Source: Vicinamibacteria bacterium (GTDB taxonomy: Bacteria > Acidobacteriota > Vicinamibacteria > Vicinamibacterales > JAENWD01). From it: a DNA stretch of 64,000 nt. Location: positions 234,826 through 298,825 of the forward strand of contig CAWDZE010000012.1 of the NCBI GenBank assembly GCA_963806705.1. The letters run 5' to 3'. The notes below the pieces were generated by a model. It had not been told where the DNA came from and did no database searches. It saw only the letters and a program-made list of their open reading frames with translations. Of this stretch, positions 42-60,689 are shown piece by piece. A program made the translations under genes and the position numbers. Position 1 is the stretch's first letter. Every line of letters begins with the position of its first letter.

Positions 42-1403
42 TCAGGAATCTCCAAGCCGGCGCATGAGCCGCCCGGCGGTTGTGACGATGCGCCCTTCGA
101 CCGACGGGTCAAACGGTCCGGGACGGCCGTAGTAGATCATCGCGCCGCCGCCCTCGTAGCCGCCTTCCTGCAGCACCCGTCCCGAAGGGATGTAGCACGA
201 GACGTCGTTGCAGTACGCCGCCACCCACAATTGTGCGGAGCCGTGCTCGCGCCTCAGACGCAGAGCGTAGTCGGTCACGACTTCCCCACCGAGGGCCACA
301 AGGGTCAGCGCTCCAAGGCGCCAGATCTGGATGGGCTCGGCATGCGCGCGTTCGAGCGTGCCGTCGCGATTGAGGCGGTCGAGCATCAGCGTCGCGTGGC
401 GCCGGACGTAAACGTCCTGGGACTGCTGGCGCGCGAGCCATCCGGCCCGGTCGGGGACGTCGCCAAACGGCAACTCGACCAGTTCGAAGCCCGCGGAGAT
501 GTTGCCCTCGAGCGGGCGTGTACGGGCAATCGCAGCGGCGACAGCATCAGCCAGCGCGATCCCGTGCTGCTCGACCAGCGCCAGTGTCCCGCGAGGAGAC
601 GGGTTGACGTCGGCGCCGCAACCAGCCAGGAACATCGCCTGTGCTCCAGGGTAGCGCCGCTCGAGTTCGCCCTGCGCGACGCCGGCGTAGTCGCCGTGGA
701 ACTCGGTCATCGCGGCCTGCAGCGTCGTGTTGTGACACGCGAACCCGAACACGATGGCCAGGCTGCGACTGTCCGGTCCCATCACGCGCAGGACCGGCAC
801 GGCCTGGTCCACCGGGCCGGGCGGCAGGAACTGAGTTCGCCGGTTGGCGCCAAACGTCGCGCGGCCCTCGCCATATGTCACTTCGGCCGGTTCGAGCCGT
901 TCGAGCGCGGCGCCGACCAGCCGGGCAATCGTCGACTCCAGCGACGCGGTATATGCGGCAATCGCGCTGCGTTGAGCGGCGTCGAGGTCGTACGCCACCG
1001 ATAACTGGTCGTCGACCACGGGGCCGCAATGCGTGTGGCTGGCCGCCAGCATCCAGGCCTCGGTCTCGAGGCGGTGTGTGCGCGACAGCGTGGCGCCGAT
1101 GCGCTGGCGCATCGCAGCCGTGACACCGAGCAGGTCGACCGTGACCAGCGCGAAGCGCCGCCCGTCGCGCTCGAGGCCAAGCGCCTTGGCGTGAAGCGGC
1201 ATCGCCGTGCCGGTGGCAGCGTGCGTACGTGCCGCAAAACCCGCCATCCACAGCCCGGGTGCCGGCGTGATGTCGGCCGATGCGACGCCGGCGCGCCAGG
1301 CGGGCTGCGCGCGTACGCCCCGGGCGGAGGTGGCGGCAACCGCGGCGGCACGAGCGAGGAAATCACGTCGGGATAGCACCGTGGTGGATAGTAGCAACTT
1401 CAC
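42..1403 (-). CDS. Tat-exported neutral/alkaline ceramidase-like hydrolase
   Basis: ORF 42..1553(-). Probable GTG start at 1403, just before the twin-arginine motif SRRDFLARAAAV. The body (ADITPAPGLWMAGFA, ASHTHCGP) resembles non-lysosomal ceramidase-like proteins. The first ~50 codons of the track ORF read through a heptamer repeat and are discounted. Confidence 0.55.
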   Translation of the reverse strand: MKLLLSTTVLSRRDFLARAAAVAATSARGVRAQPAWRAGVASADITPAPGLWMAGFAARTHAATGTAMPLHAKALGLERDGRRFALVTVDLLGVTAAMRQRIGATLSRTHRLETEAWMLAASHTHCGPVVDDQLSVAYDLDAAQRSAIAAYTASLESTIARLVGAALERLEPAEVTYGEGRATFGANRRTQFLPPGPVDQAVPVLRVMGPDSRSLAIVFGFACHNTTLQAAMTEFHGDYAGVAQGELERRYPGAQAMFLAGCGADVNPSPRGTLALVEQHGIALADAVAAAIARTRPLEGNISAGFELVELPFGDVPDRAGWLARQQSQDVYVRRHATLMLDRLNRDGTLERAHAEPIQIWRLGALTLVALGGEVVTDYALRLRREHGSAQLWVAAYCNDVSCYIPSGRVLQEGGYEGGGAMIYYGRPGPFDPSVEGRIVTTAGRLMRRLGDS

Positions 1404-1413
1404 CTGGGAGGGT

Positions 1414-1483
1414 GATATACGATTGCAGATTGCAGATTGCAGATTGCAGATTGCAGATTGCAGATTGCGGATATGCGGATTGG
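1414..1483. repeat. Heptamer tandem array: 6 perfect GATTGCA units plus degenerate units
   Basis: Read directly: gatatac (gattgca)x6 gattgcg gatatgcg gattgg. It fills 70 of the 83 bp between divergent starts at 1403(-) and 1487(+). Confidence 0.95.
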
Positions 1484-5050: not shown

Positions 5051-5109
5051 GCGCGCAATTGTCGAGAGGCTCAGCTTCCGTAATCGTCGATCTTCAATCG
5101 TCAATTCAC
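5051..5109. repeat. Heptamer-family element (GCGCGCAATT core plus AATCGTC-type units)
   Basis: gcgcgcaattgtcgag ... aatcgtc gatcttc aatcgtc aattcac. The mltF-like stop (tca at 5101-5103) lies inside it. Confidence 0.8.
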
Positions 5110-10481: not shown

Positions 10482-11456
10482 ATGCGGACACGGCGGCTTG
10501 GGCACTCGGACCTGCAGATCACCGTCATCGGGTTTGGCGCGTGGGCGATCGGCGGCGGCGACTGGCTGTTTGGCTGGGGGCCGCAGGACGACGCCGACTC
10601 GGTCGCGGCGATTCGGCGCGCGATCGATCTCGGCATCAACTGGGTCGACACGGCTGCGGTCTACGGGCTCGGACACTCCGAGCAGGTCGTCGCGCGTGCG
10701 CTGGCGGAGATCCCGGCGGGCCGGCGCCCGTACGTCTTCACGAAATCGAGCCTGGTCTGGGACAAGGACCGCCAGGTCTCTCACAGCCTGCGCGCCGATT
10801 CGATCAGGCGCGAAGTCGACGGGAGCCTCCAGCGCCTCGGCGTCGACGTCATCGACCTGTATCAGATCCACTGGCCCCGCTGGGGCAGTTCGCCGGCGGG
10901 GTGGGACCCGGGCCCGATCGAAGAAGGCTGGCAGGCGATGGCCGACCTTCAGAAGGCTGGCAAAGTCCGCTACATCGGGGCGTCCAACTTCACGCGCGAC
11001 GATCTGGCCCGCGCCGATGCGGTCGCGCCGGTCACGAGCCTGCAACCGCCCTACTCGCTGTTGCGGCGCGAGGCCGAGACGGACCTCTTTCCCTGGTGTC
11101 TCGAGCACGGCACCGGCGTGATCGTCTACTCCCCGATGCAGTCCGGGCTGCTCACCGGCACGATGACGCGAGAGCGCCTGGCGGCGCTGCCCGACAGCGA
11201 CTGGCGGCGGAGAGGCAAGTTCTTCCAGGAGCCCTACCTGACGCAGGCGCTCGCGCTGGTGGACCGCCTGAAGGCGGTGGGCGCGCGACACGGGCGCTCA
11301 CCCGGCGAAGTGGCGATTGCGTGGACGCTGCGTCATCCCGCCGTCACCGCCGCGATCGTCGGCGCCCGGCGTGCCGACCAACTCGACGGCATCGTTGGCG
11401 CGGCCGATCTCGAGCTCAGCCACGCGGACGTCGCGTTGCTCGAGCGCAGCAATTGA
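10482..11456 (+). CDS. Aldo/keto reductase
   Basis: Internal ATG at 10482 (MRTRRLGHSDLQITVIGFGAW). Motifs: DTAAVYG, LYQIHWP, IGASNF. Confidence 0.85.
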   Translation: MRTRRLGHSDLQITVIGFGAWAIGGGDWLFGWGPQDDADSVAAIRRAIDLGINWVDTAAVYGLGHSEQVVARALAEIPAGRRPYVFTKSSLVWDKDRQVSHSLRADSIRREVDGSLQRLGVDVIDLYQIHWPRWGSSPAGWDPGPIEEGWQAMADLQKAGKVRYIGASNFTRDDLARADAVAPVTSLQPPYSLLRREAETDLFPWCLEHGTGVIVYSPMQSGLLTGTMTRERLAALPDSDWRRRGKFFQEPYLTQALALVDRLKAVGARHGRSPGEVAIAWTLRHPAVTAAIVGARRADQLDGIVGAADLELSHADVALLERSN

Positions 11457-11471
11457 CGATTGCAGATCGAG
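11451..11471. repeat. Heptamer-family short array (aattgac gattgca gatcgag)
   Basis: Read directly. The AKR stop TGA (11454-11456) lies inside it. Confidence 0.8.
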
Positions 11472-11869
11472 CCGTGTTCGTGACGCTCTGGGAGGCCGCA
11501 GGCGTCCTGGCCGGCGGGCCGGTCGCAGCGCCGGACACCGGTCCTCGCCGCTCTCGACCGCTGGCCGCTTGGGTCGCCCCGCGCGATCGGGCCGGGGCTC
11601 AGGCCTGCGCTGGGTCCCACAGCTGCGGGCCGGTGTCAGGCGACCCAGGTCGGCGCTGCTCCAACGGCCCGGCGGCCAGGCCACCCGTGGCCTGCCAGCG
11701 CGCAGACACATGACACGGCGGTGCTCCTCGAGCCGACCAAGGCTGCGGGTGTCTCGCAAAGCAGCCGTGTTCGTGCACCGTCAGTTCCGGCTGCGGCGCG
11801 AGATACCCGCAGCCGTAGGTGCCCTCTCCAACCGCCTCTCGCCCGCTGGCTGTCATCCCTGCCGCCTGT

Positions 11870-11890
11870 GTTTTGACGATTGACGTTTAA
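11870..11890. repeat. Heptamer-family short array (ttttgac gattgac gtttaag)
   Basis: Read directly. Same orientation as 11451-11471. Confidence 0.75.
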
Positions 11891-11945
11891 GTCGGGGGAA
11901 CGCCGCAAACGTTTGCCGGACTCCACTCGGCAGCCGTGGGATGCG

Positions 11946-12731
11946 TCAGCGCATGAACGCAACGTAGCAATCTTCCCGGTTGTGGACGTCGACGGCGACT
12001 CCAAATACGTCGCCAAGCACCGCAGACGTCAGCACCTCGTCTTTCGGGCCATCCCGGAAGACACGGCCGTCCTTGAGGACGACCACGCGGCCTATCTCCG
12101 GGATGATGTCGGGCAGGTGGTGAGTCACCAGGATGATGTTAGTGCCCTGCCGAGCCAGGCGGCGCAGGCACGCGGTCAGGTCGCGGCATGCGCGCAGGTC
12201 GAGGCTGTTGGTGGGCTCGTCGAGCACCAATGCCTGCGGCTGGTGCGCCAGCGCCCGTGCGATCAGCAGGCGGCGCGACTCTCCTGACGACAGGTGATTG
12301 ACGGTTCTCCCTGCCAGGTGCGCGACTTCCATCACGTCGAGCGCTGCGTCGGCTCGCCCTTCCATGTCGCTGGTCACCTCGTGATGCGGCCAGAGTCCCA
12401 CGCTCCCGAAGAATGCCGACAGCACGAGGTCGCGTCCCGATATCTCCCGCGTGCAGGTCGCCATCAGGTCGTTGGTCACGATGCCCAGGTGCTCGCGCAG
12501 CTCGAAGAGCAACCAGCGGTCGCGGCCCAGCACCCGCAATTCCGCGTCCGGCGCGACGACTGGGAACAGCTCGCGCGTGACCAACTTCAATAGCGTGGAC
12601 TTGCCCGAGCCGTTGGGTCCGACGATGGCCACGTGCTGCCCCGAAGGAATCGAGAGAGAAAACCGATCGAGCACGACCTGCTCGTCACGGTAGACGGTGA
12701 GGTTGCGAAACTCCAGCAGCGGGGGCAACAT
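11946..12731 (-). CDS. ABC transporter ATP-binding protein (orphan, no adjacent permease)
   Basis: Walker A GPNGSGKST, signature LSSGESRR, Walker B LVLDEP. The second ATG (12731) is preferred because the first lies in the heptamer array. Confidence 0.8.
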   Translation of the reverse strand: MLPPLLEFRNLTVYRDEQVVLDRFSLSIPSGQHVAIVGPNGSGKSTLLKLVTRELFPVVAPDAELRVLGRDRWLLFELREHLGIVTNDLMATCTREISGRDLVLSAFFGSVGLWPHHEVTSDMEGRADAALDVMEVAHLAGRTVNHLSSGESRRLLIARALAHQPQALVLDEPTNSLDLRACRDLTACLRRLARQGTNIILVTHHLPDIIPEIGRVVVLKDGRVFRDGPKDEVLTSAVLGDVFGVAVDVHNREDCYVAFMR

Positions 12732-12737
12732 GCCCGT

Positions 12738-12772
12738 AATCGTCAATCGTCAACCTGCAATCGTCAATTGAT
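12738..12772. repeat. Heptamer array (aatcgtc aatcgtc aacctgc aatcgtc aattgat)
   Basis: Read directly. Fills the divergent gap between the ABC ATPase and the Gfo/Idh/MocA gene. Confidence 0.9.
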
Positions 12773-12783
12773 ATAGTTCCCCT

Positions 12784-14109
12784 ATGCCCCTCCATCCTTC
12801 TCGCCGCCAATTCCTGCGCGCCGTGACGAGTGCGGCGGTGGCCGCACCCTACTTCTGGATTCCAGCGCGCGCCCAGACGCGAATGGTCCGACACGCCAGC
12901 TTCGGCGCCGGCGGCATGGCGTCGGCGGACATCAACCAGTTTGCCAAGCACCCGGCGTTCGAGCTGGTGGCCGTCGCCGACGTCGACCTCTGCCGCCTCG
13001 ATCGCGTCCTCGATCGCTTCCCCAAGGCCCGCCTCTACCAGGATTGGCGCGAGTTGTTGAAGAAAGAGGGCGAACGGCTCGATTCGGTCAACGTCTCGAC
13101 ACCCGATCACATGCACGCGCTCCAGGCGATGGAAGCGATGCGGCAGGGCAAGCACGTGTACGTGCAGAAGCCGCTGGCCAACACCCTGCGCGAGACGCGC
13201 ACCCTCACCGAGTACGCTCGAAAAGCGCGGGTCGTCTCGCAAATGGGCATCCAGGTTTCGTCCGAGGAGCCTCAGCGCTACGGTGAGTGGCTCGTGCGCA
13301 GCGGGATCGTCGGCAAGATCCGCGAGGTGCACACCTTCTCGAACAAGAACTGGGGCGACGACAAGCCGCTGCGCGACAGCGCCGACCCGGTGCCGCCAAC
13401 GCTCGACTGGAACCTGTGGCTCGGCGTCGCCGACTCTCGGCCGTTCAAGCGCAACATTTACCACCCAGGAGAGTGGCGTCGACGCATCGGGTTCGGGACC
13501 GGCACGCTCGGTGACATGGGCTGCCACATCTACAGCCCGCCCTATCGCGCGTTGAAACTGACGGCCCCAATCAAAGTGACGTCCCACGGCGGGACGCCGT
13601 CGGCGGAAAGCTGGGCCATCAAGGCCAGGGTGCACCTCGTGTATCCCGGCACCGAGTACACCGCGGGCCCCGAGATCGACGTGTGGTGGTATGACGGCGG
13701 CGAGCTGCCGCCCGACGACCTGCGCTCGCAGGTGGGCACCCGCATGCCTGAACAGGGCAGCCTGATCCTCGGCACCGACGGCCTCCTGGTGCTGCCGCAT
13801 GGCGGCGAGGCGTTTGTCCTGCCGGACTCGAAGATGGCGACGATTCAGAAGCCCGCGCTGACGCCGCGGAATCACTACGCCGAGTTCGTCGACGCCGTGG
13901 TGGCGGGTCAAGCCACCTGCTCGGCCGGCTTCGACTACAGCGGCCCGTTGACCGAATCGGTCCTGATCGGCAATGTCGCCGCCCACTACCCCGGCGAGAC
14001 ACTGACATTTGACGCCGCGCGTCTGGCTTTCCCGGAAAAGCCCGACGCCAGCCGGCACCTCACGCGCAACTATCGCAAGGGCTGGCGAATCAAGGGCGCG
14101 GACGTGTAG
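12784..14109 (+). CDS. Tat-exported Gfo/Idh/MocA family oxidoreductase
   Basis: Tat motif SRRQFLRAVTSAAVAAP, followed by HASFGAGGMA and YVQKPL. Confidence 0.85.
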   Translation: MPLHPSRRQFLRAVTSAAVAAPYFWIPARAQTRMVRHASFGAGGMASADINQFAKHPAFELVAVADVDLCRLDRVLDRFPKARLYQDWRELLKKEGERLDSVNVSTPDHMHALQAMEAMRQGKHVYVQKPLANTLRETRTLTEYARKARVVSQMGIQVSSEEPQRYGEWLVRSGIVGKIREVHTFSNKNWGDDKPLRDSADPVPPTLDWNLWLGVADSRPFKRNIYHPGEWRRRIGFGTGTLGDMGCHIYSPPYRALKLTAPIKVTSHGGTPSAESWAIKARVHLVYPGTEYTAGPEIDVWWYDGGELPPDDLRSQVGTRMPEQGSLILGTDGLLVLPHGGEAFVLPDSKMATIQKPALTPRNHYAEFVDAVVAGQATCSAGFDYSGPLTESVLIGNVAAHYPGETLTFDAARLAFPEKPDASRHLTRNYRKGWRIKGADV

Positions 14110-21604: not shown

Positions 21605-22090
21605 ATGCTCAGGCTCTCCAAAAAGACGGATTACGCCCTGATCTCGTTGACTTACGTGGCCTCGCTGGGGGCCCGGCCGGCCAGCGCGCGGGAGATTGCC
21701 GAGCGACACGACATCCCGGTTGAGCTGCTGGCCAAGGTGCTGCAGCGGCTGGTGCAGCGAGGGGTCCTTCGGTCCCAGCAGGGCATTCACGGCGGTTATC
21801 TGCTGGCGCGGCCGGCCCAAACCGTCACCGTGGCCGAGGTCGTCGAGGCGATTGACGGCCCATTGCAACTGACGGTGTGCGGAACGACGGACGAGCGCTG
21901 CGAGCAGTTTTCGAAGTGCAACGTGCGCGACCCGCTCCACCGGATCCGCGACCGGATCATCGGCGCACTGATGGAGTGCACGGTGGCTGAACTGGCAAAC
22001 GACCGGCACGACGAGCCGGTCGCGATGCCCTTTGCCACCGGCGGCATCGCCATAGCCGGACGGGCGAGACGGGAACCCGTGAACTCGTGA
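21605..22090 (+). CDS. Rrf2 family transcriptional regulator (IscR/SufR-like, Cys-x6-Cys-x5-Cys cluster ligands)
   Basis: N-terminal MLRLSKKTDYALISL wHTH region and CGTTDERCEQFSKC. The last codons and the stop lie inside the octamer array. Confidence 0.85.
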   Translation: MLRLSKKTDYALISLTYVASLGARPASAREIAERHDIPVELLAKVLQRLVQRGVLRSQQGIHGGYLLARPAQTVTVAEVVEAIDGPLQLTVCGTTDERCEQFSKCNVRDPLHRIRDRIIGALMECTVAELANDRHDEPVAMPFATGGIAIAGRARREPVNS

Positions 22091-22148
22091 ACCAGTGAAC
22101 CCGTGAACTCGAACCTGTGAACCCGTGAACCTGTGAACCCGTGAACCG
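22071..22148. repeat. Octamer tandem array (GTGAACCN, ~10 units)
   Basis: gggaaccc gtgaactc gtgaacca gtgaaccc gtgaactc gaacct gtgaaccc gtgaacct gtgaaccc gtgaaccg. Confidence 0.95.
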
Positions 22149-35316: not shown

Positions 35317-35398
35317 CACCATCAACCTGACCCAACCCGACCCAACCTGACCCAACCAGACCCAACCTGACCCAACCTGACCCAACCTGACCCAATCT
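35317..35398. repeat. Decamer tandem array (GACCCAACCN, 7 units plus a degenerate lead-in)
   Basis: gacccaaccc gacccaacct gacccaacca (gacccaacct)x3 gacccaatct. Fills the gap between 35307 and 35402. Confidence 0.95.
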
Positions 35399-35401
35399 GT
35401 T

Positions 35402-36406
35402 CTAGGGCATCGCGCGTATCGCCTCCCACACGGCGTCATCCACCGGGATGCCGAGTCGCGTGTTTTCCGCGCGCGTTCGCAACACCTGCTCGCCGGGATA
35501 GCGCGCGGCGCCGCCGCCTGCGGCCGGCACGGCGGTGTGCAGGTCGTCGATCACCGCCGAGACCACACGCGACAGCGCGTCGGCGCCGCCGGCGCGGCTC
35601 ACGTCGAAGGCGAGAAACACCTGCGAGAGCCCGAATTCGTCGGGTTGACGACCGATCTGATGGGCGGTCTGGCCGCCGGACAGGACGGCGCCGAGCACGT
35701 CGAAGACCAGCGACATCCCCGCGCCCTTCCAATAGCCGGCCGGCAGCGGACGCATCGTCCTGAGAATCGCGCCAGGGTCGGTCGTCAGGTGGCCCGCCTC
35801 GTCGTACCCTCCGGGGATCGGGAGTTGCTCGCCGCGCAGCTGCAGCGTCTCCATCTTCCCGTAGGAAAACTGCGACATCGCGACGTCGAGCACGACCGGC
35901 TGGTCGCCGCGCGGGATCGCGATGATGACCGGCGTGTTGCCAAGCTTCGAGGTGAGCGTGCCCCAGGGAGGCATGTTGGGCGTGGTGTTGGTCCATCCTA
36001 TGAACGCCACGCCGGCCTCGGCCGCCTGCCAGCCGTAGGTGCCCCCGCGCATCCAGTGGTTGGTATTCCGCAGGGCAACCAGCCCCAGACCATGTTCCTT
36101 CGCCAGCGCAACGGCGCGACTGGTGGCCGTGGTCGCATTCAGATTTCCGGGCCCGAGCTGCCCGTCCCACTGCTCCCACGGACCGAAGCGGGCCGCACAG
36201 ACTGGTTCTGCGTTGGGCTTCACGATGCCGGCCTTGATCTGACGGACGAACCGCGGAAACCGGTTGAGCCCATGCGAGGCCACGCCGTCACGGTGCGTCT
36301 CGGCAAACAGAGTCGCCGACCGCCGCGCGCGCGGGCCCGAAAATGCCAACCCTTCAAGCACCCGCGTGAGCTCGACGACTACGTCTTCAAATGAAATGCG
36401 AATCAT
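35402..36406 (-). CDS. Ldh_2 family dehydrogenase (3-dehydro-L-gulonate 2-dehydrogenase / malate-L-lactate dehydrogenase type 2-like)
   Basis: Internal ATG at 36406. Motifs: HGLNRFP, LRNTNHWMRGGTYGW, GYDEAGHLTTDP. Confidence 0.8.
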   Translation of the reverse strand: MIRISFEDVVVELTRVLEGLAFSGPRARRSATLFAETHRDGVASHGLNRFPRFVRQIKAGIVKPNAEPVCAARFGPWEQWDGQLGPGNLNATTATSRAVALAKEHGLGLVALRNTNHWMRGGTYGWQAAEAGVAFIGWTNTTPNMPPWGTLTSKLGNTPVIIAIPRGDQPVVLDVAMSQFSYGKMETLQLRGEQLPIPGGYDEAGHLTTDPGAILRTMRPLPAGYWKGAGMSLVFDVLGAVLSGGQTAHQIGRQPDEFGLSQVFLAFDVSRAGGADALSRVVSAVIDDLHTAVPAAGGGAARYPGEQVLRTRAENTRLGIPVDDAVWEAIRAMP

Positions 36407-36490
36407 GGGAATTGCAGATTGCGATTGACGGATTACGAAATTCGCGCGCAATTCTTAATCGTCAATCGTCAATCTGCAATCGTCAATTTC
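36407..36490. repeat. Inverted pair of heptamer arrays (long imperfect palindrome)
   Basis: ggaattgca gattgcg attgacg gattacg aaattcgcgcgcaattctt aatcgtc aatcgtc aatctgc aatcgtc aatttcc. The lipid-kinase stop (36469-71) lies in the right arm. Confidence 0.9.
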
Positions 36491-41602: not shown

Positions 41603-42460
41603 TCACCCTCCACCCGCGGATATTGCCACAGCCGCCAGGGCAATGCCCACGGCTACCGTGACGTTGAGCGAATCAGCCTCGCGCGCGATCGGGATCCGGA
41701 TGCGCTCGGACGCCCGGGCCAGGCTGAGATCCGTGAGTCCGGGCCCTTCGGCGCCGGAGAGCAGCGCCAGCCGGTCCGGCACGCCACGCGATACGGCGAC
41801 GTCAAGCGGCATCGCACTCGAGGCGGGGGTCAGCGCCCACACCGTCACCCCGTCCTCCACGAGCGCGCGCAGCACGTCGGGCCACGGCGTCGCCTCGGCA
41901 TGCGGCACCGCCAGCGCGGCGCCGCAGGACACGCGGATGGCTTTGCGGTACAACGGGTCGCCGGTGCCGGGGCCAACCAGCACGGCGTCGACGCCAAACG
42001 CGCGCGCCGTTCGAAAGAGGCCGCCGACGTTGTCGGGGTTGCCCACGCCTTCGAGGACCAGCAGCCGGCGGGCGCCGCGCACCACGTCGCGCCACGCGTG
42101 CGGCAAGCCGCGCTCGCCCACGGCCAGGCAGCCGCGGTGCATGTTGAACCCGGTCAGACCTTCCATCCACGCTGCGGGGACGACCATCACGTCGAGCGCC
42201 GGATCGCAGGCGCCCAGCACATCGTCGAGCGCTGCGTGCGCCGTCTCGGAGACCAGCACCGCGCGGGTGCGATAGCGCGACTCGGTCAGCAGACGTCGGA
42301 CGACAAGGCGGCCCTCGGCGAGAAACAGCCCGTCGCGCCGGCGCAGCTCCGCATCGCCGACGTCGCGAAACGGCGCAAGACAAGGGTCGTCGAGCGAGAC
42401 GGGGCGACGCACCGGCACGACGCGATCATAGCGTCCCGGGAAGGAGGTTCGCGGGTTCAC
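41603..42460 (-). CDS. TrmH/SpoU family RNA 2'-O-methyltransferase
   Basis: Motifs LEGVGNPDNVGGLFRTA, LLSGAEGPGL, IPIAREADSLNV. The annotated GTG start lies inside the octamer array, so the true start is uncertain. Confidence 0.8.
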   Translation of the reverse strand: MNPRTSFPGRYDRVVPVRRPVSLDDPCLAPFRDVGDAELRRRDGLFLAEGRLVVRRLLTESRYRTRAVLVSETAHAALDDVLGACDPALDVMVVPAAWMEGLTGFNMHRGCLAVGERGLPHAWRDVVRGARRLLVLEGVGNPDNVGGLFRTARAFGVDAVLVGPGTGDPLYRKAIRVSCGAALAVPHAEATPWPDVLRALVEDGVTVWALTPASSAMPLDVAVSRGVPDRLALLSGAEGPGLTDLSLARASERIRIPIAREADSLNVTVAVGIALAAVAISAGGG

Positions 42461-42523
42461 CGGTTCACGAGTTCACAGGTTACGGGTGCACGGGTTCCGA
42501 GGTTCGAAGGTTCACGGGTTCGG
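42445..42523. repeat. Octamer tandem array, reverse orientation (NGGTTCAC, ~10 units)
   Basis: aggttcgc gggttcac cggttcac gagttcac aggttac gggtgcac gggttccg aggttcga aggttcac gggttcgg. Confidence 0.95.
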
Positions 42524-48910: not shown

Positions 48911-48978
48911 GGCTGCACCGGGTCACCAGGCACTCGGCACCGCACGCGGTTCACCAGGTCACCAGGCACCCAGGCACT
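48911..48978. repeat. Degenerate octamer array (CAGGTCAC / CGGTTCAC / CAGGCACY units)
   Basis: ggctgcac cgggtcac caggcact cggcaccg cacg cggttcac caggtcac caggcacc caggcact. An AT-rich aattctc cgaatta caattgt tract follows. Confidence 0.8.
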
Positions 48979-49008
48979 CGAAATTCTCCGAATTACAATT
49001 GTTGTTAG

Positions 49009-50694
49009 ATGCGCGTTGCCCTCGCCCAGTTGAACTTCACCGTCGGGGCGTTCGACCGGAACTATCGCAAGATCGCCGATGCCGCCAGCAAGGCCAGCAG
49101 CGCCGGCGCCGATCTGCTGCTGCTGTCGGAACTGGCCACGACGGGCTACCCGCCGCGCGACCTGCTCACCCTCTCCGGTTTTGTCGACGCCAACCTGGCC
49201 ATGCGCGATCGCGTCGCCGCGCTGTCAACCGATCAGCTCGGCATCGTCGTCGGCTGCGCCGAGCCCAACGAGGCCGCCGGCGGCAAGCCGCTCTTCAACA
49301 CCGCCGTGCTGTGCCACCGGGGACAGGTCGTCGGCCGGCATCGCAAGACCCTGCTGCCGTCGTACGACGTCTTCGACGAGGACCGGTATTTCGAAGCCGG
49401 CACGACTATCGTCCCGCTGACGTTCAAGGGCGTGCGGCTGGGCGTCACGGTGTGCGAGGAAGCCTGGAACGACCCCGAGTTCTGGCCGCGGCGGTTGTAT
49501 CCGAGCGACCCGGTGGCCGACATGGCCGCACAGGGCGTCGACCTGTTCATCAACATCTCGTCGAGCCCGTTCGCGATGGGCAAGGCCGCGATTCGTCGCG
49601 ACATGATCCGCCAGCATGCCGCGAGGCATCGGGTGCCGTTCCTGTACCTGAACCAGGTGGGCGGCAACGACGAGCTGATCTTCGACGGACACTCGCTGGG
49701 TTTCGACGCCGACGGCGCCATGATCCTTCGTGCCGACGACTTCGATGAGGCGTTTGTCGTCGTGGACGTGCTGAACACTCCCGCGGCGCTGGAGCCCCGC
49801 CTCCACAACAGTAGTGAGATTCCCGGTGAGATCGCCAGGGTCAGCGAATCGCGCGAAGAGGAGGCGTGGCATGCGCTGCGGCTCGGCCTGCGCGACTACG
49901 TGTGCAAGTGCGGGTTCAGATCAGTCGTGCTCGGCCTGTCCGGTGGCATCGACTCGGCGCTCACGGCCGCCCTGGCTGCCGACGCACTGGGCCCTTCACA
50001 CGTCACCGGCATCGCCATGCCCACGCGCTACTCGTCCGATCACTCGCTGCGGGATGCCGAAGCCGTCGCCAGGAACCTGGGCATCGGCTATCACGTCGTC
50101 GCCATCGACGAGATCTTCCAGAGCTATCTCGACGCGCTGGCGCCGGTGCTACCCGGTCCCCAGGGCGTCGCCGAAGAAAACATCCAGGCACGCGTGCGCG
50201 GCGCCGCCCTGATGGCGTACTCGAACAAGCATGGAAGCTTGTTGCTCTCCACGGGGAACAAGTCCGAGCTGGCCGTCGGTTACTGCACCCTTTACGGCGA
50301 CATGTGCGGAGGGCTGGCCGTCATCAACGACGTGCCCAAGACCCTGGTGTACGACCTGGCGCGCTACGTGAACCGCCGGGCCGAGGTCATCCCCGTCTCG
50401 AGCATCACCAAGCCGCCCAGCGCCGAGTTGCGGCCGAATCAGACCGACCAGGACACGCTGCCCCCCTACGAGGTGATCGACGCGATCGTGGAAGGCTACG
50501 TCGAGCGGGGACTCGACGGCGCGGCGCTGGTCTCGCAGGGGCTCGCCCCGGACATCGTCGCTGACGTGATTGGCCGCATCGACCGCAACGAATACAAGCG
50601 GCGTCAAGCGGCGCCGGGCCTGCGCATCACGTCCAAGGCGTTCGGCGTCGGCCGGCGTTTTCCAATCGCGGCGGCTTACGACCAGCGGGCCTGA
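49009..50694 (+). CDS. nadE: Glutamine-dependent NAD+ synthetase
   Basis: 561 aa. N-terminal CN-hydrolase domain (SELATTGYPP, VCEEAWN) and C-terminal synthetase domain (GLSGGIDS, STGNKSELAVGYCTLYGD). Confidence 0.95.
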   Translation: MRVALAQLNFTVGAFDRNYRKIADAASKASSAGADLLLLSELATTGYPPRDLLTLSGFVDANLAMRDRVAALSTDQLGIVVGCAEPNEAAGGKPLFNTAVLCHRGQVVGRHRKTLLPSYDVFDEDRYFEAGTTIVPLTFKGVRLGVTVCEEAWNDPEFWPRRLYPSDPVADMAAQGVDLFINISSSPFAMGKAAIRRDMIRQHAARHRVPFLYLNQVGGNDELIFDGHSLGFDADGAMILRADDFDEAFVVVDVLNTPAALEPRLHNSSEIPGEIARVSESREEEAWHALRLGLRDYVCKCGFRSVVLGLSGGIDSALTAALAADALGPSHVTGIAMPTRYSSDHSLRDAEAVARNLGIGYHVVAIDEIFQSYLDALAPVLPGPQGVAEENIQARVRGAALMAYSNKHGSLLLSTGNKSELAVGYCTLYGDMCGGLAVINDVPKTLVYDLARYVNRRAEVIPVSSITKPPSAELRPNQTDQDTLPPYEVIDAIVEGYVERGLDGAALVSQGLAPDIVADVIGRIDRNEYKRRQAAPGLRITSKAFGVGRRFPIAAAYDQRA

Positions 50695-50702
50695 ATCCGC
50701 GT

Positions 50703-50738
50703 AATCTCTTAATCGTCAATCTCCAATCGTCAATTGAT
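50703..50738. repeat. Heptamer array (aatctct t aatcgtc aatctcc aatcgtc aattgat)
   Basis: Read directly. The gluQ TTG start (50734) lies inside it. Confidence 0.9.
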
Positions 50739-51630
50739 CACGCGCTTTGCGCCCTCGCCCACTGGCCACCTGCACCTCGGCCACCTCCTGAATGCCATCT
50801 ATGTCTGGCGCCTCGCGCGGCGCTCGGCGGGCACGGTGCGGCTGCGAATCGAGGACCACGACCGCGAGCGCTCACGCCCGGAGTTCGAACGAAGCATCCT
50901 CGACGATCTCGAGTGGCTCGGCTTCGTGCCCGACATGCCCGCCTTCGCGGCGTTCCGCGCCGGGCCCTGCGACGGTCGCCAGAGCGACCATCCGCAGCGA
51001 TATGAAGAGGCGCTCGCGCGGCTCGAGCGCGACGGGCGCGTTTACGGCTGCGCCTGCTCGAGGGCGGACATCCTGCGGAGGATGGGGGGCTCGGCGCCTT
51101 CGGCGCCGAGGGGGGCGCCCCGCGGGGAGGCGCTCGCTGGCGCTCGCGAGGGGGAGAGGCCGATCGAAGAACTGCGCTACGACGGGTTCTGCAGGACTCG
51201 AAACATCAGGCCCGGTCCTGGCGTGGGCACACGCGTTCGACTCGATCCGGGCGTCGAGAGGTTCGAGGACGAGATGCTCGGGCCGCAGCAGCAGGATCCG
51301 CTCGAGCAGTGCGGCGATGTCCTGGTGCGCGATCGGCTCGGCTATTGGACGTATCAATTCGCCGTCACCGTCGACGACCTCTTGGAGGGCATCACCGACG
51401 TCATCCGCGGGCGCGATCTCCTGGCGTCAACCGGTCGCCAGATACAACTCGCGCGCCTGCTCGGCAGATCCACACCGCCGAGGTTTCTCCATCATCCGTT
51501 GATCCTCGGCGCCGACGGCGAGAAGCTCAGCAAGTCCAGGCGTGACACCAGCCTGCGCGAGTTGCGCGCTGCGGGGCTCGGTGCGCCCGAGGTCATTGCT
51601 CGTGCCGAGGGCGCGCTGCGCGGTTCCTAA
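50734..51630 (+). CDS. gluQ: tRNA glutamyl-Q(34) synthetase
   Basis: TRFAPSPTGHLHLGH (HIGH motif). A truncated GluRS-like catalytic domain without an anticodon-binding domain. KLSKS motif (EKLSKSRRD). Confidence 0.85.
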   Translation: MITRFAPSPTGHLHLGHLLNAIYVWRLARRSAGTVRLRIEDHDRERSRPEFERSILDDLEWLGFVPDMPAFAAFRAGPCDGRQSDHPQRYEEALARLERDGRVYGCACSRADILRRMGGSAPSAPRGAPRGEALAGAREGERPIEELRYDGFCRTRNIRPGPGVGTRVRLDPGVERFEDEMLGPQQQDPLEQCGDVLVRDRLGYWTYQFAVTVDDLLEGITDVIRGRDLLASTGRQIQLARLLGRSTPPRFLHHPLILGADGEKLSKSRRDTSLRELRAAGLGAPEVIARAEGALRGS

Positions 51631-51664
51631 TGCTGCAATCTGCAATCTGCAATCTGCAATTGTA
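51629..51664. repeat. Heptamer array (aatgctgc (aatctgc)x3 aattgta)
   Basis: Read directly. It starts within the gluQ stop codon (TAA, 51628-51630) and ends 10 nt before the phoD ATG. Confidence 0.95.
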
Positions 51665-51674
51665 AGATTTCCCC

Positions 51675-53213
51675 ATGAACCGCCGAGCGTTCCTTCGCAC
51701 GACCTCCTCATTACTGGCGCCTGCGGTCATGAGCCGCATACTGCAGGATGCCAACGCGCCCGCGATGCCCGGCGGCGTGCAGGTTGGCGACGTCACCGAC
51801 ACGCGCGCCATGATATGGAGCGCCACGGATCGTCCGGCGCGCATGCTCGTGGAGGTGTCGCGAGACGAGCGCTTCTCGTCACCGCGGCTGATCGAAGGGC
51901 CGGCCGCTCTTGAAGACACGCGCTTCACGGCAAAGATCGACCTCGGCGGGCTGACGCCCGGAGAGCCGGTCTTCTATCGCGTCTGGTTCGACGACCTGGA
52001 GCGTCCGGGCCTGCTGAGCGCACGGACCGTTGGTCAGTTCCGGGCCGCGCCCTCGGCCGCGCGTCCCCTCACCATGTGCTGGTCCGGCGATGTGGTCGGG
52101 CAGGGCTGGGGCATCGACGAGTCGCGCGGAGGCATGCGCCTGTACGAGACGATGGCGCGGCATTCGCCGGATCTGTTCATCCACTCCGGCGACCAGATCT
52201 ACGCTGACGGACCATTGCGGCCGGAGGTCACGCTCGACGACGGCACGGTGTGGCGAAACGTCGTGACCGACGCCAAGCAGAAAGTGGCCGAGACGCTGGA
52301 CGAGTTCCGTGGGAACTATGCGTACAACCTTCTCGACCGCCACGCGCGCGCCTTCAACAGCCAGGTGCCGATGATCGTGCAGTGGGACGATCACGAAGTG
52401 ATGAACAACTGGAGTCCCGGCACCGACCTGGCGGCTCGAGCTCCGTACGTGGAGCGCAGCATCGCGATGCTCGCGGCGCGAGCCAGGCGCGCGATGTTCG
52501 AGTACCTGCCGATCAGGTCGCATCCCGATGAGGCCGAGCGCGTCTATCGCGCCTACCAGTACGGGCCGCTTGCCGAGATCATCGTCCTGGACCAGCGGAG
52601 CTACCGCGCCGCCAACAACGGCAACCGGCAGGCGTCGGAGGGGCCCGAAACGCGGATGTTGGGTCCGGCACAAGCCGCGTGGTTCAAGCAGCGGTTGCTG
52701 GCGTCGCGGGCGACTTGGAAGGTCATCGCCAGCGACATGCCGCTTGGCCTGGTCATCGGCAACGGGCCGCGTGACGGGGTGCCGACGTTTGAAGCGTGGG
52801 CAAACGGTCCGGGTGCGCCGCTGGGGCGCGAACTGGAGTTGGCGGACATCCTCACCTTCGTCCGCAACCAGGGGATCCGCAACCTCGTCTGGGTGACCGC
52901 CGACGTGCACTACGCGGCCGCTCACTTCTACGACCCCGCCGTGGCCGAGTTCAAGGACTTCCTGCCCTTCTGGGAGTTCGTCGCCGGTCCGCTTCACGCA
53001 GGCACGTTCGCGCCCAACAGGCCTGACCCGACCTTTGGCTGCACCCAGGTCTTCAACAGTGTCCCGGCGGACCTCAAACCAAACCGTCCGCCGAGCGATG
53101 GCCTCCAATTCTTCGGGACGCTGACCATCGATCCCGCCACTCGCCGGCTGACGTCCGCGCTGTGGAATCGCGCCAACGAAAAGCTCTGGAGTGTCGTCCT
53201 CGACGCCGAATAA
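51675..53213 (+). CDS. phoD: Tat-exported alkaline phosphatase D family protein
   Basis: Tat motif NRRAFLRTTSSLLAP. PhoD-like metallophosphatase motifs: SGDQIYADG, WDDHEV, DVHYAA. Confidence 0.9.
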   Translation: MNRRAFLRTTSSLLAPAVMSRILQDANAPAMPGGVQVGDVTDTRAMIWSATDRPARMLVEVSRDERFSSPRLIEGPAALEDTRFTAKIDLGGLTPGEPVFYRVWFDDLERPGLLSARTVGQFRAAPSAARPLTMCWSGDVVGQGWGIDESRGGMRLYETMARHSPDLFIHSGDQIYADGPLRPEVTLDDGTVWRNVVTDAKQKVAETLDEFRGNYAYNLLDRHARAFNSQVPMIVQWDDHEVMNNWSPGTDLAARAPYVERSIAMLAARARRAMFEYLPIRSHPDEAERVYRAYQYGPLAEIIVLDQRSYRAANNGNRQASEGPETRMLGPAQAAWFKQRLLASRATWKVIASDMPLGLVIGNGPRDGVPTFEAWANGPGAPLGRELELADILTFVRNQGIRNLVWVTADVHYAAAHFYDPAVAEFKDFLPFWEFVAGPLHAGTFAPNRPDPTFGCTQVFNSVPADLKPNRPPSDGLQFFGTLTIDPATRRLTSALWNRANEKLWSVVLDAE

Positions 53214-60034: not shown

Positions 60035-60164
60035 AGGTTTGGACGGGTTGGGTCCAGGTGGGGTCTGGTTGATGTCGGTTGGCCAGGTTGTAAGGCGGCA
60101 ACCCGATCAACCAGCATCAACCCGACCCAACGTGACCCAACCCGACCCAACCTGACCCAACCAG
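60035..60164. repeat. Inverted pair of decamer arrays (GGTTGGGTC-type arm, then GACCCAACC-type arm)
   Basis: aggtttggac gggttgggtc caggtggggtc tggttgatgtc ggttggcc aggttg / taaggcgg / caacccgat caaccagcat caacccgac ccaacgtgac ccaacccgac ccaacctgac ccaaccagc. Confidence 0.9.
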
Positions 60165-60179
60165 CTTCCCTCTTCTACA

Positions 60180-60689
60180 ATGTGTGCCGTGTCCCCGAGC
60201 GCGGTCCGTATCGTCGGTCTCGTCCTGTCGCTGGTCTACGCAGCGGCGATCGTGCGCGTCTACGTCCGCCAGCCGGCGACGTTGCCCGAGGTCGCCGGCA
60301 GCCTGACATCGACGGTTGGCGCGTACCGCATCGACCAGGACCGTTTCGACGCCGGCCTGGCCTTTTTCCGGCGCGACCAGTTCGTCGAGGCGCGCGACGC
60401 CTTTGCGCAGGCGGACCCCGCGCGTCAGGACGCCTCGGTCCAGTTCTACCTGGCGTACGCCTATCTGCGACAGGGCTGGGGCCGCGTCTATGCCGACGAC
60501 GCGCTCTACAAGGCCGGACAGGCCACCCTCGTCCACGCGCGCAGCCTGGTCCCCAGCGGCAGCATCGTCGTCCAGGACCCGAACCTCCGGCTGCATACGA
60601 GCGAGGAACTGGCGGCCGAGTTCGAGCGCGGCCTCACGCGGGAGCTTTCGGACCTGAACCCGGTCCGGGTCTTCCGGGAGCGGCCATGA
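60180..60689 (+). CDS. Hypothetical membrane-anchored protein (single N-terminal TM helix, TPR-like helical region)
   Basis: 169-aa ORF with good GC3 bias. ATGA overlap with the next ORF. No family recognised. Confidence 0.5.
   Translation: MCAVSPSAVRIVGLVLSLVYAAAIVRVYVRQPATLPEVAGSLTSTVGAYRIDQDRFDAGLAFFRRDQFVEARDAFAQADPARQDASVQFYLAYAYLRQGWGRVYADDALYKAGQATLVHARSLVPSGSIVVQDPNLRLHTSEELAAEFERGLTRELSDLNPVRVFRERP

Follow-up and report, generated by a model that had tools for sequence, protein, structure and literature searches.

GATTG-core heptamer arrays at the gene boundaries of an acidobacterium: very probable members of the STRR type of bacterial intergenic repeats

Within a 64,000-nucleotide stretch of DNA from a Vicinamibacterales-like acidobacterium (hereafter the window), we analyzed a divergent gap in which a tandem array of heptanucleotides (positions 1421-1483) is flanked by genes encoding a ceramidase-like enzyme and a Tat-signal Gfo/Idh/MocA oxidoreductase. 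Read directly from the window, the array consists of six GATTGCA units followed by GATTGCG, GATATGCG and GATTGG (TRF: 8.7 copies, 94% match). The perfect (GATTGCA)6 array that had been described from the letters alone (the sequence-only reading) is indeed present within 1421-1469, together with GATTGCG and a degenerate tail. The features of this locus are as follows:

1386-1420, no strand assigned: promoter-like block, GGATAGTAGCAACTTC..GGTGATATAC, kept in all orthologues
1421-1469, plus strand: core array of six perfect GATTGCA units plus GATTGCG, in phase (sequence, TRF and strict scan)
1470-1483, plus strand: degenerate tail, GATATGCG GATTGG, ending 3 nt short of the Gfo/Idh/MocA ATG at 1487

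The ceramidase gene had been read as starting at 1403. Its start is probably the GTG at 1379; in two relatives (L123 and L125), the equivalent GTG has an in-frame stop directly ahead of it and a Tat motif behind it. The divergent gap would therefore measure ~107 bp rather than 83 bp. The head of the 1421-1469 array (the 5' end of its GATTG strand) adjoins the conserved block, which shows TTGCTACTAT on its minus strand, 8 nt ahead of the ceramidase GTG at 1379, and TGATATAC on its plus strand, 7-8 nt ahead of the Gfo ATG of array-free relatives. The tail harbors an out-of-frame upstream ATG at 1473. A scan for sigma-70-type promoters predicted none in the divergent gap, and a scan for intrinsic terminators across 1250-1650 returned no terminator-like site.

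The sequence-only reading had proposed slipped-strand switching of promoter spacing at this array, along with a comparison of orthologous loci. Unit number does differ among relatives: at the orthologous sites, in genomes sharing 80-91% protein identity, it is 0, 0, 0, 2, 5 and ~9 between identical flanks, a variation that fits slipped-strand dynamics. The spacing switch itself found no support, since the array lies downstream of the conserved promoter-like block, not between -35 and -10, and no sigma-70-type promoter is predicted. The alignment of orthologues also shows that the array grew in place from local sequence. Judged from these comparisons, the 1421-1483 array is very probably a recent slipped-strand expansion beside a conserved divergent promoter-like block. 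A metagenome scan for copy-number variation within populations, anchored on the flank and the first unit, recovered only three copies of an unrelated locus.

The array is one of several in the window. A strict scan (at least three in-phase units with a GATTG core) identified five GATTGNN arrays, at 1421-1469, 12735-12769, 36447-36488, 50708-50735 and 51634-51661, compared with none in 30 first-order Markov simulations of the window; all five have a period of 7 by TRF and were also checked by eye. Weaker loci, with two to three units or out of phase, are present at 5081-5109, 11451-11471, 11870-11890, 36407-36440 and 48981-49004. A non-random, multi-locus heptamer family had been claimed before, and these results bear it out, with 8-9 intergenic loci between Pfam-supported genes in the 64 kb of the window. 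The family unit in this genome is GATTG(C/A)N, in which the GATTG core is constant and the last two positions vary. The neighboring genes are ordinary metabolic or housekeeping genes rather than contingency loci. Besides the 1421 locus, the family includes:

5081-5109, minus strand: GATTGNN units on the sense strand, right behind the SLT/SBP stop TGA (5101-5103)
11451-11471, plus strand: AATTGAC, GATTGCA, GATCGAG, with the aldo/keto reductase stop TGA (11454-11456) in the first unit
11870-11890, plus strand: weak two-unit member (TTTTGAC, GATTGAC) in a stretch without a supported gene
12735-12772, minus strand: five-unit array, reading (CAATCGT)n CAATTG, ATATAGTTCCCCT, ATG on the sense (plus) strand of the Gfo-like gene at 12784
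36407-36440, plus strand: left arm of an inverted pair, C-rich on the sense (minus) strand, ending in CAATTCCC right before the Ldh_2 ATG at 36406
36447-36488, minus strand: right arm of the inverted pair, G-rich on the sense (minus) strand, starting with AATTGAC, which contains the DAGK/YegS stop TGA
48981-49004, plus strand: degenerate member (..GAATTACAATTG..) ahead of NadE, whose ATG is at 49009
50703-50738, plus strand: (CAATCNN)n filling the NadE-GluQRS spacer; the TTG start of GluQRS (50734) is the TTG of the terminal CAATTG
51629-51664, plus strand: (CAATCTG)3 CAATTG, between the stop of GluQRS and the ATG of PhoD (51675); the conserved TAAGATTTCCCC comes next

The placement of arrays at gene boundaries, also part of the earlier description, holds in detail, with stops in or beside first units and starts 0-11 nt from arrays; the reported CAATTG or CAATT array ends are real as well. 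Two TGA stops, 11454-11456 and 36469-36471, fall within a first unit AATTGAC, and the SLT/SBP stop immediately precedes a first unit of the same sequence (TGAATTGAC) in an array that lies between a convergent gene pair. The starts at 0-11 nt are those at 50734, 51675, 12784 and 36406, where GGAG/GAGG is absent. Single arrays in the window are direct repeats without dyad symmetry, and only 36407-36488 pairs; its two arms are predicted to fold together (-38.4 kcal/mol), placing the stop and the start at the base of the hairpin. An Rfam search of the whole window and of 11400-12000 gave no match, and a tRNA search found none.

In contrast to the young 1421 array, the arrays around GluQRS and PhoD are long-lived: four genomes that share 73-86% protein identity have them at both the NadE/GluQRS and the GluQRS/PhoD junction. 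Three relatives (L120, L121 and L122) carry an array at the position equivalent to 50703-50738 and another, of 2-5 units, at the position equivalent to 51629-51664. Among the four genomes the CAATC core of the junction arrays is kept, while unit number and variants differ; the TACAAT at the NadE locus (48981-49004) is likewise kept in four genomes.

We then considered ~2 Mb of loci from many phyla plus viral contigs, which were chosen for containing GATTG arrays and whose ORF boundaries came from a crude ORF/GC3 caller. Genome contigs contributed at least 119 GATTGNN loci and viral contigs at least 120, where the chance expectation for cross-phylum matches is ~1 (estimated from 4^20 and a 596-Gb collection). 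Among arrays of at least three copies, period 7 prevails (383, vs. 26 for period 6 and 38 for period 8; 431 vs. 56 and 71 in a replicate). Arrays most often have 4-4.9 units (116 of 327), and their numbers drop steeply from 5 units upward; this mode was replicated (140 vs. 31). Units vary greatly in sequence from genome to genome, and separate loci within one genome can bear different heptamers; of the non-ascertained period-7 arrays, half show no relation to GATTG. The scan also recovered (GATTGGG)n, the reverse complement of CCCCAAT, in cyanobacteria (L072, L092 and L099).

Position and strand follow a rule in this sample. Within 40 nt of an array there are 75 ORF boundaries at the head (43 starts and 32 stops) vs. 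18 at the tail (126 arrays), the 43 start-associated arrays lying 2-38 nt from the start codon in different phyla. The sense strand has more C than G before starts (85:29) and more G than C after stops (74:12; among heptamers that do not resemble GATTG, 22:0). Replication in viral contigs was weaker (59 against 34; 87:61; 89:49). A start or stop codon is often part of the first unit, which in an analysis of in-phase flanking units (126 arrays) is often AATTG instead of GATTG; a gradual decay of arrays away from their gene-proximal end was unsupported by the same analysis. Starts behind arrays lack GGAG/GAGG and fold at -6 to -8 kcal/mol, compared with roughly -13 to -30 for most other starts of the same genomes, a little under half of which have a Shine-Dalgarno motif. 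Inverted pairs of the same unit account for 108 of 365 arrays (~30%), with the G-rich arm first in 49 vs. 3 (31:6 in a replicate); ~70% of arrays have no partner arm. Where both flanks were resolved, these pairs lie mostly between co-directional genes, and a T-rich tail accompanies only 9 of 48. Mature arrays typically comprise 4-5 units, are polar, and have the 5' end of the GATTG strand flush with an ORF boundary, so that the mRNA would read (CAAUCNN)n before starts and (GAUUGNN)n after stops. The arrays of the window obey this rule, with the exception of the one at 1421, whose polarity is the disfavored one for the Gfo gene.

Cyanobacteria were the first bacteria in which intergenic heptamer repeats were noticed, in 1990. 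The STRR naming reportedly goes back to Mazel et al. in that year, and the Nostoc-type GGGGA(C/T)T corresponds to the cyanobacterial STRR1 unit CCCCA(A/G)T. It is very probable that the 1421 array is a member of these widespread bacterial intergenic heptanucleotide tandem repeats of STRR type, and it is a real feature but no new kind of element. The sequence-only reading had taken it for an undescribed one; at the level of the class it matches STRR, the GGGAATC repeats of Xanthomonas and the GGGGA(C/T)T repeats of Nostoc/Anabaena (Rehm et al., 2015; PMC4692102), and the TAACTGA repeats (MacGregor, 2015; PMC4679880), having position, strand rule, unit count and inverted pairing in common. The Xanthomonas and Nostoc repeats are likewise intergenic tandem 7-nt units with about four preferred, located 0-50 bp from ORF ends, their G-rich strand being the antisense one ahead of starts and the sense one behind stops; they are frequently paired in inverted orientation (Xanthomonas), kept between the same genes with variation in length and sequence, and transcribed according to RNA-seq (PMC4692102). 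In Xanthomonas most of them separate co-directional genes, and divergent pairs have fewer than expected (PMC4692102). The present family differs in that GATTGCA, GATTGAC and GATTGCG lack any run of two or more G, and in its acidobacterial host.

The TAACTGA repeats, found in marine Beggiatoaceae, some Cyanobacteria and Bacteroidetes, are similar in occurring as 2-6 direct copies in one orientation, a few nucleotides before starts without a Shine-Dalgarno motif, where they cover the expected ribosome-binding site; the neighboring genes belong to no particular functional class, and a translational role was proposed (PMC4679880). Their unit sequence is another one, and stop-codon association and inverted pairs are rare there (one indirect repeat). 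Four or five tandem heptamers in multiple copies are also known from Geobacter metallireducens (GGACCGG; MTYCTGA), where they are annotated as putative regulatory RNA or binding sites, with other units and some copies inside genes (PMC2700814). Enterobacterial REP/BIME elements resemble our arrays in being intergenic, often intercistronic, present in many copies per genome, near stops and capable of hairpins when paired. They are ~35-bp imperfect palindromes spread by RAYT with one consensus per genome, not tandem 7-mers, whereas heptamer arms show an internal period and arrays are able to form in place. The contingency SSRs of Neisseria and Haemophilus share perfect tandem units, slippage-variable number and an intergenic position near promoters, but these are mostly of 1-5 nt and lie in promoter spacers or coding sequence of surface or virulence genes. 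Our array is outside a -35/-10 spacer, its neighbors are metabolic, and most family members are imperfect arrays of 4-5 units. A literature search on the bare 7-mer matched only primers, and one on STRR, TAACTGA and GGGAATC from 2016 onwards found no follow-up work.

The best explanation of these data, to which we give about an even chance, is a STRR-type heptamer family whose 1421 copy is young and whose arrays act on mRNA. That the arrays are transcribed and have their role on the mRNA is in itself a tentative proposal, somewhat short of even chances. Most family members lie between co-directional genes and flush with starts or stops, which points to RNA and not to promoter DNA. Before a start, the G-poor strand would give a leader without upstream starts, without a Shine-Dalgarno motif and with weak structure, which could serve as a ribosome landing or standby site; unstructured CA-repeat tails have been shown to raise translation strongly via ribosome standby (PMC5934652). 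Paired arms would form a long hairpin tolerant of shifts in pairing register, with the upstream stop and the downstream start at its base, comparable to a REP-like intercistronic element that could stabilize, process or couple both cistrons. The 1421-1483 copy may be no more than a young, tolerated expansion by which the Gfo leader has become longer.

It should be noted that several observations run against such a role. By fold prediction, (GAUUGCA)n RNA self-pairs via UGCA (-19.8 kcal/mol for the 62-nt array) and is therefore not structure-free. The G-rich arrays beside stop codons are unexplained by a leader, and an unstructured leader requires neither a 7-nt period nor a conserved GATTG core. 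The hairpin, for its part, would not apply to the majority of arrays that have no partner arm. In addition, the genes at 12784, 51675 and 49009 look leaderless, having a -10-like box 5-8 nt before the ATG, so that the arrays there would be promoter-upstream DNA and not leader.

A less probable but serious alternative is that the arrays are functionless microsatellites, created and resized by slippage with an intrinsic 7-nt preference, while selection only purges harmful placements, such as those that put start codons or Shine-Dalgarno-like G-rich runs before genes or disrupt ORFs. The 1421 locus suits this explanation well, having arisen and expanded within a narrow clade (0, 2, 5 and ~9 units) and carrying six perfect units indicative of recent slippage. 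The diversity of unit sequences also agrees with it. Heptamer repeats were reported in 2007 to be over-represented across bacteria, and their excess has been ascribed to polymerase slippage (both as cited in PMC4692102). Avoidance of UUG, AUG and GUG in leaders would by itself favor the G-poor strand before starts. Such a constraint is absent at stops, however, where G-rich arrays nevertheless prevail (32 against 8; 22:0 for unrelated units). Slippage alone is expected to give a length distribution that decays, not one that peaks at 4-5 units and drops steeply above 5, and it does not account for the same-unit inverted pairs with their 49:3 polarity, nor for the survival of arrays with their CAATC core at orthologous junctions of the four genomes.

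It is improbable that the arrays act as DNA-level elements, that is, as phased protein-binding sites or an upstream promoter element whose unit number switches promoter activity. In favor of this alternative, the units keep their GATTG core but not their last two positions, polarity is set relative to the ORF boundary regardless of gene direction (a DNA-level symmetry), the arrays at 12738, 51629 and 48981 end directly at the -10-like boxes of apparently leaderless genes, and the GATTGAC variant includes, on the opposite strand, a near-consensus -35 (TTGACG). The sense strand of the arrays, in turn, lacks a TTGACA-like hexamer, and the divergent gap has no predicted sigma-70-type promoter. A -10 box could not be accommodated in many phyla, where only 2-7 nt separate the end of the array from the start codon or the array runs directly into a Shine-Dalgarno motif. 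The preference of the surveyed pairs for co-directional genes, shared by the transcribed Xanthomonas repeats (PMC4692102), and the ordinary metabolic neighbors also argue against it.

Cold-shock proteins are, as far as is known, nearly universal in bacteria, which would fit the cross-phylum spread of heptamer arrays. We nonetheless hold it very unlikely that each 7-nt unit docks one cold-shock-domain protein or S1 domain, with 4-5 units loading a short protein filament on mRNA or non-template DNA. The period-7 peak is independent of sequence, B. subtilis CspB accommodates exactly a heptanucleotide (PMC1904285), and Csp or S1 was proposed by MacGregor for the TAACTGA repeats (PMC4679880). On the other hand, a binder of low specificity needs no exact repeats, and CspB binds Y-box-like ATTGG/CCAAT weakly, its preferred site being GTCTTTG/T (PMC1904285).

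A G-quadruplex or i-motif, as proposed for Xanthomonas and Nostoc, or a mobile REP/RAYT- or MITE-type element can be practically dismissed: position, strand rule, unit number and pairing do match the G-rich repeats (PMC4692102) and inverted pairs do resemble REP hairpins, but GATTGCA and GATTGAC have no G-runs and obey the same rules, which excludes a quadruplex for the GATTGNN family, while the arrays show no visible terminal inverted repeats or target-site duplications, the 1421 array grew in place, and different loci of one genome can carry different heptamers. Two further candidates were rejected. Backup stops in all three frames do not account for the arrays next to stop codons, as GATTGAC gives TGA and GATTGCA gives none, and among 25 unrelated units found beside stops just 12 include one. 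Rho loading (rut-like) was set aside as a general explanation because cyanobacteria, which to our knowledge lack Rho, carry such repeats.

Returning to arrays that act on mRNA, a broader reading, which we consider speculative and rather unlikely, is that heptamer arrays are a cross-phylum punctuation of gene boundaries: ~32-nt modules (4-5 units of 7 nt), G-rich after stops and C-rich before starts, that a conserved machine stepping by 7 nt (binders of the cold-shock-domain or S1 type, or the ribosome) would read, or that would pair in cis or in trans, and that would set translation initiation, coupling and mRNA stability independently of Shine-Dalgarno pairing. If pairing were involved, it would take the form of hairpins in cis, or of contacts in trans between transcripts with opposite-polarity arrays of the same genome-specific unit. 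A family without G-runs obeys the rules of position, strand, length and pairing, so these rules are separable from the quadruplex idea; if the punctuation reading is true, the GATTGNN family makes the published G4 explanation incidental. The rules point instead to a general trait in the organization of bacterial mRNAs at stops and starts, especially in genes without a Shine-Dalgarno motif. In practice the arrays matter in modest but real ways: they affect gene-start calling, are hot spots of between-strain length variation, and offer a simple natural system for models of ribosome standby and intercistronic hairpins in poorly studied phyla.

A strict scan of the window, set to accept only runs of three or more GATTG-core units in phase, identified five heptamer arrays (1421-1469, 12735-12769, 36447-36488, 50708-50735, and 51634-51661), and first-order Markov simulations of this sequence of about 67% G+C (n = 30) produced none. 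Shorter or out-of-phase loci are also present (5081-5109, 11451-11471, 11870-11890, 36407-36440, and 48981-49004), in support of the multi-locus family claimed by the sequence-only reading. Pfam analysis of the flanking genes identified a ceramidase-like protein, two Tat-signal Gfo/Idh/MocA oxidoreductases, a rhamnose mutarotase, an SLT/SBP protein, an aldo/keto reductase, an ABC ATPase, Ldh_2, and DAGK/YegS, to which synteny added NadE, GluQRS, and PhoD; no tRNA or Rfam match was found in the window.

Most loci in the window obey one placement rule: the sense strand reads (CAATCNN)n 5' of starts (at 12784, 36406, 50734, and 51675) and (GATTGNN)n 3' of stops. Put another way, the head of the GATTG strand (its 5' end), often AATTG or CAATTG, always points toward the gene. 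A TGA stop lies inside the first unit, AATTGAC, at 11454-11456 and 36469-36471, and directly precedes it at 5101-5103 (TGAATTGAC); the GluQRS start is the TTG of a terminal CAATTG, in agreement with the database gene call (298 aa). At 36407-36488, an inverted pair has the sense-strand order stop, G-rich arm, 20-nt spacer, C-rich arm, and ATG, and its predicted fold (-38.4 kcal/mol) places the stop and start at the base.

Other repeats were noticed in the window. The 8-mers (GAACCCGT)n and GGTCACCA-like make up a second tandem family, which likewise occupies spacers between co-directional genes:

22073-22147, plus strand, 8-mer family
42446-42521, minus strand, 8-mer family
48915-48977, plus strand, 8-mer family

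A 10-mer family (35323-35399 and 60118-60162) obeys the strand rule of the heptamers, with a G-rich sense strand, (GGTCAGGTTG)n, directly 3' of the Ldh_2 stop and a C-rich sense strand, (CAACCCGACC)n, directly 5' of the ATG at 60180. Between the stops of the aldo/keto reductase and the ABC ATPase, about 490 bp (11457-11945) carry no supported ORF and no Rfam match above noise, and contain two copies of GCCGTGTTCGTG (about 11472 and 11763). On metagenome contigs L127-L129, the 20-mer GGAGGGTGATATACGATTGC is seen again at an unrelated locus preserved in three samples, where it adjoins GGGGATTAT repeats; this recurrence may reflect chance or a shared promoter-like motif.

Read directly, the array at 1421-1483 consists of six GATTGCA units followed by GATTGCG, GATATGCG, and GATTGG, and ends 3 nt 5' of the ATG at 1487 (TRF: 7-nt unit, 8.7 copies, 94% match). 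Its polarity relative to the Gfo gene is the disfavored one. All relatives compared at this locus share the block GGATA(G/C)TA(G/C)CAACTTC..GGTGATATA(C/G), directly after which the array starts.

Units after the conserved block in the window and in orthologous loci of related genomes
L125, Gfo identity 82%: none; GTTCGCGC, then ATG
L126, Gfo identity 80%: none; GTTCGCGC, then ATG
L124, Gfo identity 91%: none
L123, Gfo identity 91%: 2
L130, Gfo identity 91%: 5
Window: about 9

This series (0, 0, 0, 2, 5, and about 9 units) indicates, by sequence comparison, that the array at 1421 is a young expansion of variable copy number, and bears out the unit-number variation proposed earlier; the units after the block record slippage-type birth and resizing. 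The array is probably just a tolerated recent expansion that makes the Gfo leader longer and gives it an upstream ATG in another frame, at 1473, which starts a 12-codon upstream ORF overlapping the Gfo start. The Gfo frame is open upstream through the array (ORF 1280-2827, region 1280-1486), and P0171, a 710-aa database homolog (77% query coverage), may result from a gene call that is fused or extended.

Orthologue comparison moved the probable ceramidase start to the GTG at 1379, as L123 and L125, as read, have an in-frame stop just 5' of the equivalent GTG and a Tat motif (SRRDFL) downstream; the divergent gap is therefore 107 bp and not the 83 bp of the sequence-only reading. In the array-less genomes, the -10-like boxes TTGCTACTAT and TGATATAC of the conserved block and the respective start codons are 7-8 nt apart, an arrangement suggestive of divergent promoters that are nearly leaderless. 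In the gap, a consensus scan detected neither a sigma-70-type promoter nor a terminator, and the switch of promoter spacing proposed for this array was not upheld.

By its GluQRS and Gfo homologues, the window belongs with Vicinamibacterales-like Acidobacteriota. The gene order FtsX, NadE, GluQRS, PhoD is kept in three relatives (L120-L122; GluQRS identity 73-86%), as are CAATC-type arrays at the NadE-GluQRS and GluQRS-PhoD junctions, where unit number and unit variants differ among genomes. The NadE-GluQRS arrays run into the GluQRS start (CAAT-TTG or CAATT(C)-GTG), and a conserved GCAAT(T)(G)TAAGATT(T)CCCC-ATG lies 5' of PhoD. Unlike the array at 1421, arrays at other junctions have persisted for long. 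In one relative only, L122 (4651-4688), the CAATC-type array of the NadE-GluQRS spacer has beside it an array of another heptamer, (AAATGCA)n. Compared with the 8-mers of the window, the orthologous spacer 5' of NadE carries another repeat in L120 (4150-4270), (GAAGCACCC)n, and in L121, the repeat position being kept and the repeat sequence not.

A scan for three GATTGNN units followed by GATTG, in one genome per bacterial and archaeal species, recovered at least 119 loci, against about one match expected by chance according to our own estimate (4^20 possible 20-mers, 596 Gb, two strands). The matches listed include Acidobacteriota, Planctomycetota, Chloroflexota, Cyanobacteria, Xanthomonadales, Verrucomicrobiota, Gemmatimonadota, Desulfobacterota, Bacteroidota, and others. 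As an independent replication, a scan of IMG/VR viral contigs recovered at least 120 loci; each set comprises about 1 Mb. ORF boundaries were assigned with a crude ORF/GC3 caller, and the presence of GATTG arrays was the criterion for choosing loci, so effect sizes are approximate.

Survey counts among the matches listed (approximate effect sizes)
Arrays of at least 3 copies, period 7 / 6 / 8: genome loci 383 / 26 / 38; viral 431 / 56 / 71
Non-ascertained period-7 arrays, 4-4.9 / 5-5.9 copies: genome 116 / 26 of 327; viral 140 / 31
ORF boundary within 40 nt, head / tail: genome 75 / 18 of 126 arrays; viral 59 / 34
Sense strand before starts, C>G / G>C: genome 85 / 29; viral 87 / 61
Sense strand after stops, G>C / C>G: genome 74 / 12; viral 89 / 49
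Inverted same-unit pairs, G-rich / C-rich arm first: genome 49 / 3; viral 31 / 6

Among the matches listed, half of the genome-locus arrays not selected by the search are unrelated to GATTG, and of the non-GATTG heptamers 3' of stops, 22 have a sense strand with G>C and none has one with C>G. The 75 head-side boundaries in genome loci comprise 43 starts and 32 stops. Inverted pairs hold 108 of the 365 arrays listed, with inter-arm gaps mostly of 5-60 nt; when both flanks are resolved, the genes on either side of a pair are mostly co-directional, and only 9 of 48 pairs have a T-rich tail. GATTGNN arrays are common in the viral or proviral contigs (L131-L250, which may be true phage genomes or host fragments), and the contigs listed also show the period-7 excess, the 4-copy mode, and G-first inverted pairs.

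Rehm et al. described GGGAATC in Xanthomonas and GGGGA(C/T)T in Anabaena, 89-93% of them intergenic (PMC4692102). Like the GATTGNN family, these repeats lie 0-50 bp from ORF ends under the same strand rule, prefer four units, occur in inverted pairs, and are conserved in position and variable in length among relatives; they are transcribed, and were assigned no function, G-quadruplexes being favored (PMC4692102). MacGregor described TAACTGA repeats a few nt 5' of start codons without a Shine-Dalgarno motif and proposed S1, Csp, or CsrA as their binders (PMC4679880), and the Geobacter metallireducens genome paper reported elements of four or five tandem heptanucleotides (PMC2700814). Among the matches listed, our genome scan recovered (GATTGGG)n, the reverse complement of the cyanobacterial unit CCCCAAT, in cyanobacteria. 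Since its features have already been reported for other heptamers, the GATTGNN family, earlier taken as undescribed, belongs to a known, unexplained class of heptamer repeats and is not a new kind. In contrast to the G-rich Rehm repeats, the GATTGCA and GATTGAC units have no G-run, yet obey all the same rules; the G-quadruplex therefore cannot be the general explanation of heptamer repeats.

The surveys show the polarity, modal length, and pairing of the arrays. Array-preceded start regions lack GGAG/GAGG, and a Shine-Dalgarno motif occurs at a little under half of the other starts in the same genomes; the array-preceded regions are also the least structured (-6 to -8 kcal/mol, versus roughly -13 to -30 for most other starts). 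The arrays are proposed to be transcribed, like the Xanthomonas repeats; their G-poor strand would provide a leader free of start codons and structure that aids Shine-Dalgarno-independent initiation, much as CA-repeat tails in E. coli aid initiation via ribosome standby (PMC5934652), and paired arms would form an intercistronic hairpin, a role likened to that of REP elements. Against an unstructured leader, (GAUUGCA)n is predicted to self-pair through UGCA (-19.8 kcal/mol), and the leader model does not explain the G-rich arrays against stop codons, the 7-nt period, or the conserved core. Also counting against it, several genes that follow an array seem to have no leader, their -10-like box standing 5-8 nt 5' of the ATG, so that the array would fall in promoter-upstream DNA.

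In the window (1386-1420, 12769-12786, 48996-49011, and 51660-51677) and in L120-L126, several genes seem to have little or no leader, a conserved -10-like box lying 5-10 nt 5' of the start:

Gfo orthologues: TGATATAC
Gene at 12784: TGATATAGT, then TCCCCT and ATG
PhoD, four genomes: TAAGAT, then T(T)CCCC and ATG
NadE, four genomes: TACAAT
Ceramidase: TTGCTACTAT, then 8 nt and GTG

A short C-tract directly 5' of ATG recurs beside arrays in several phyla.

Slippage without function, making and resizing the arrays, fits in part: it accounts for the young 1421 locus and the diversity of units, but leaves unexplained the 4-5-unit mode, the association with stops, and the 49:3 polarity of inverted pairs among the matches listed. 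That the arrays are a double-stranded DNA binding array or promoter element would agree with a polarity that is symmetric at the DNA level and with the adjoining -10-like boxes, but across many phyla arrays lie flush with start codons and Shine-Dalgarno motifs. The idea that the arrays load a cold-shock-domain or S1 protein fits poorly, as CspB does bind a heptanucleotide but binds ATTGG/CCAAT weakly (PMC1904285). The locus at 1421 is itself an ordinary young repeat, and the regularities seen across phyla are the more striking.
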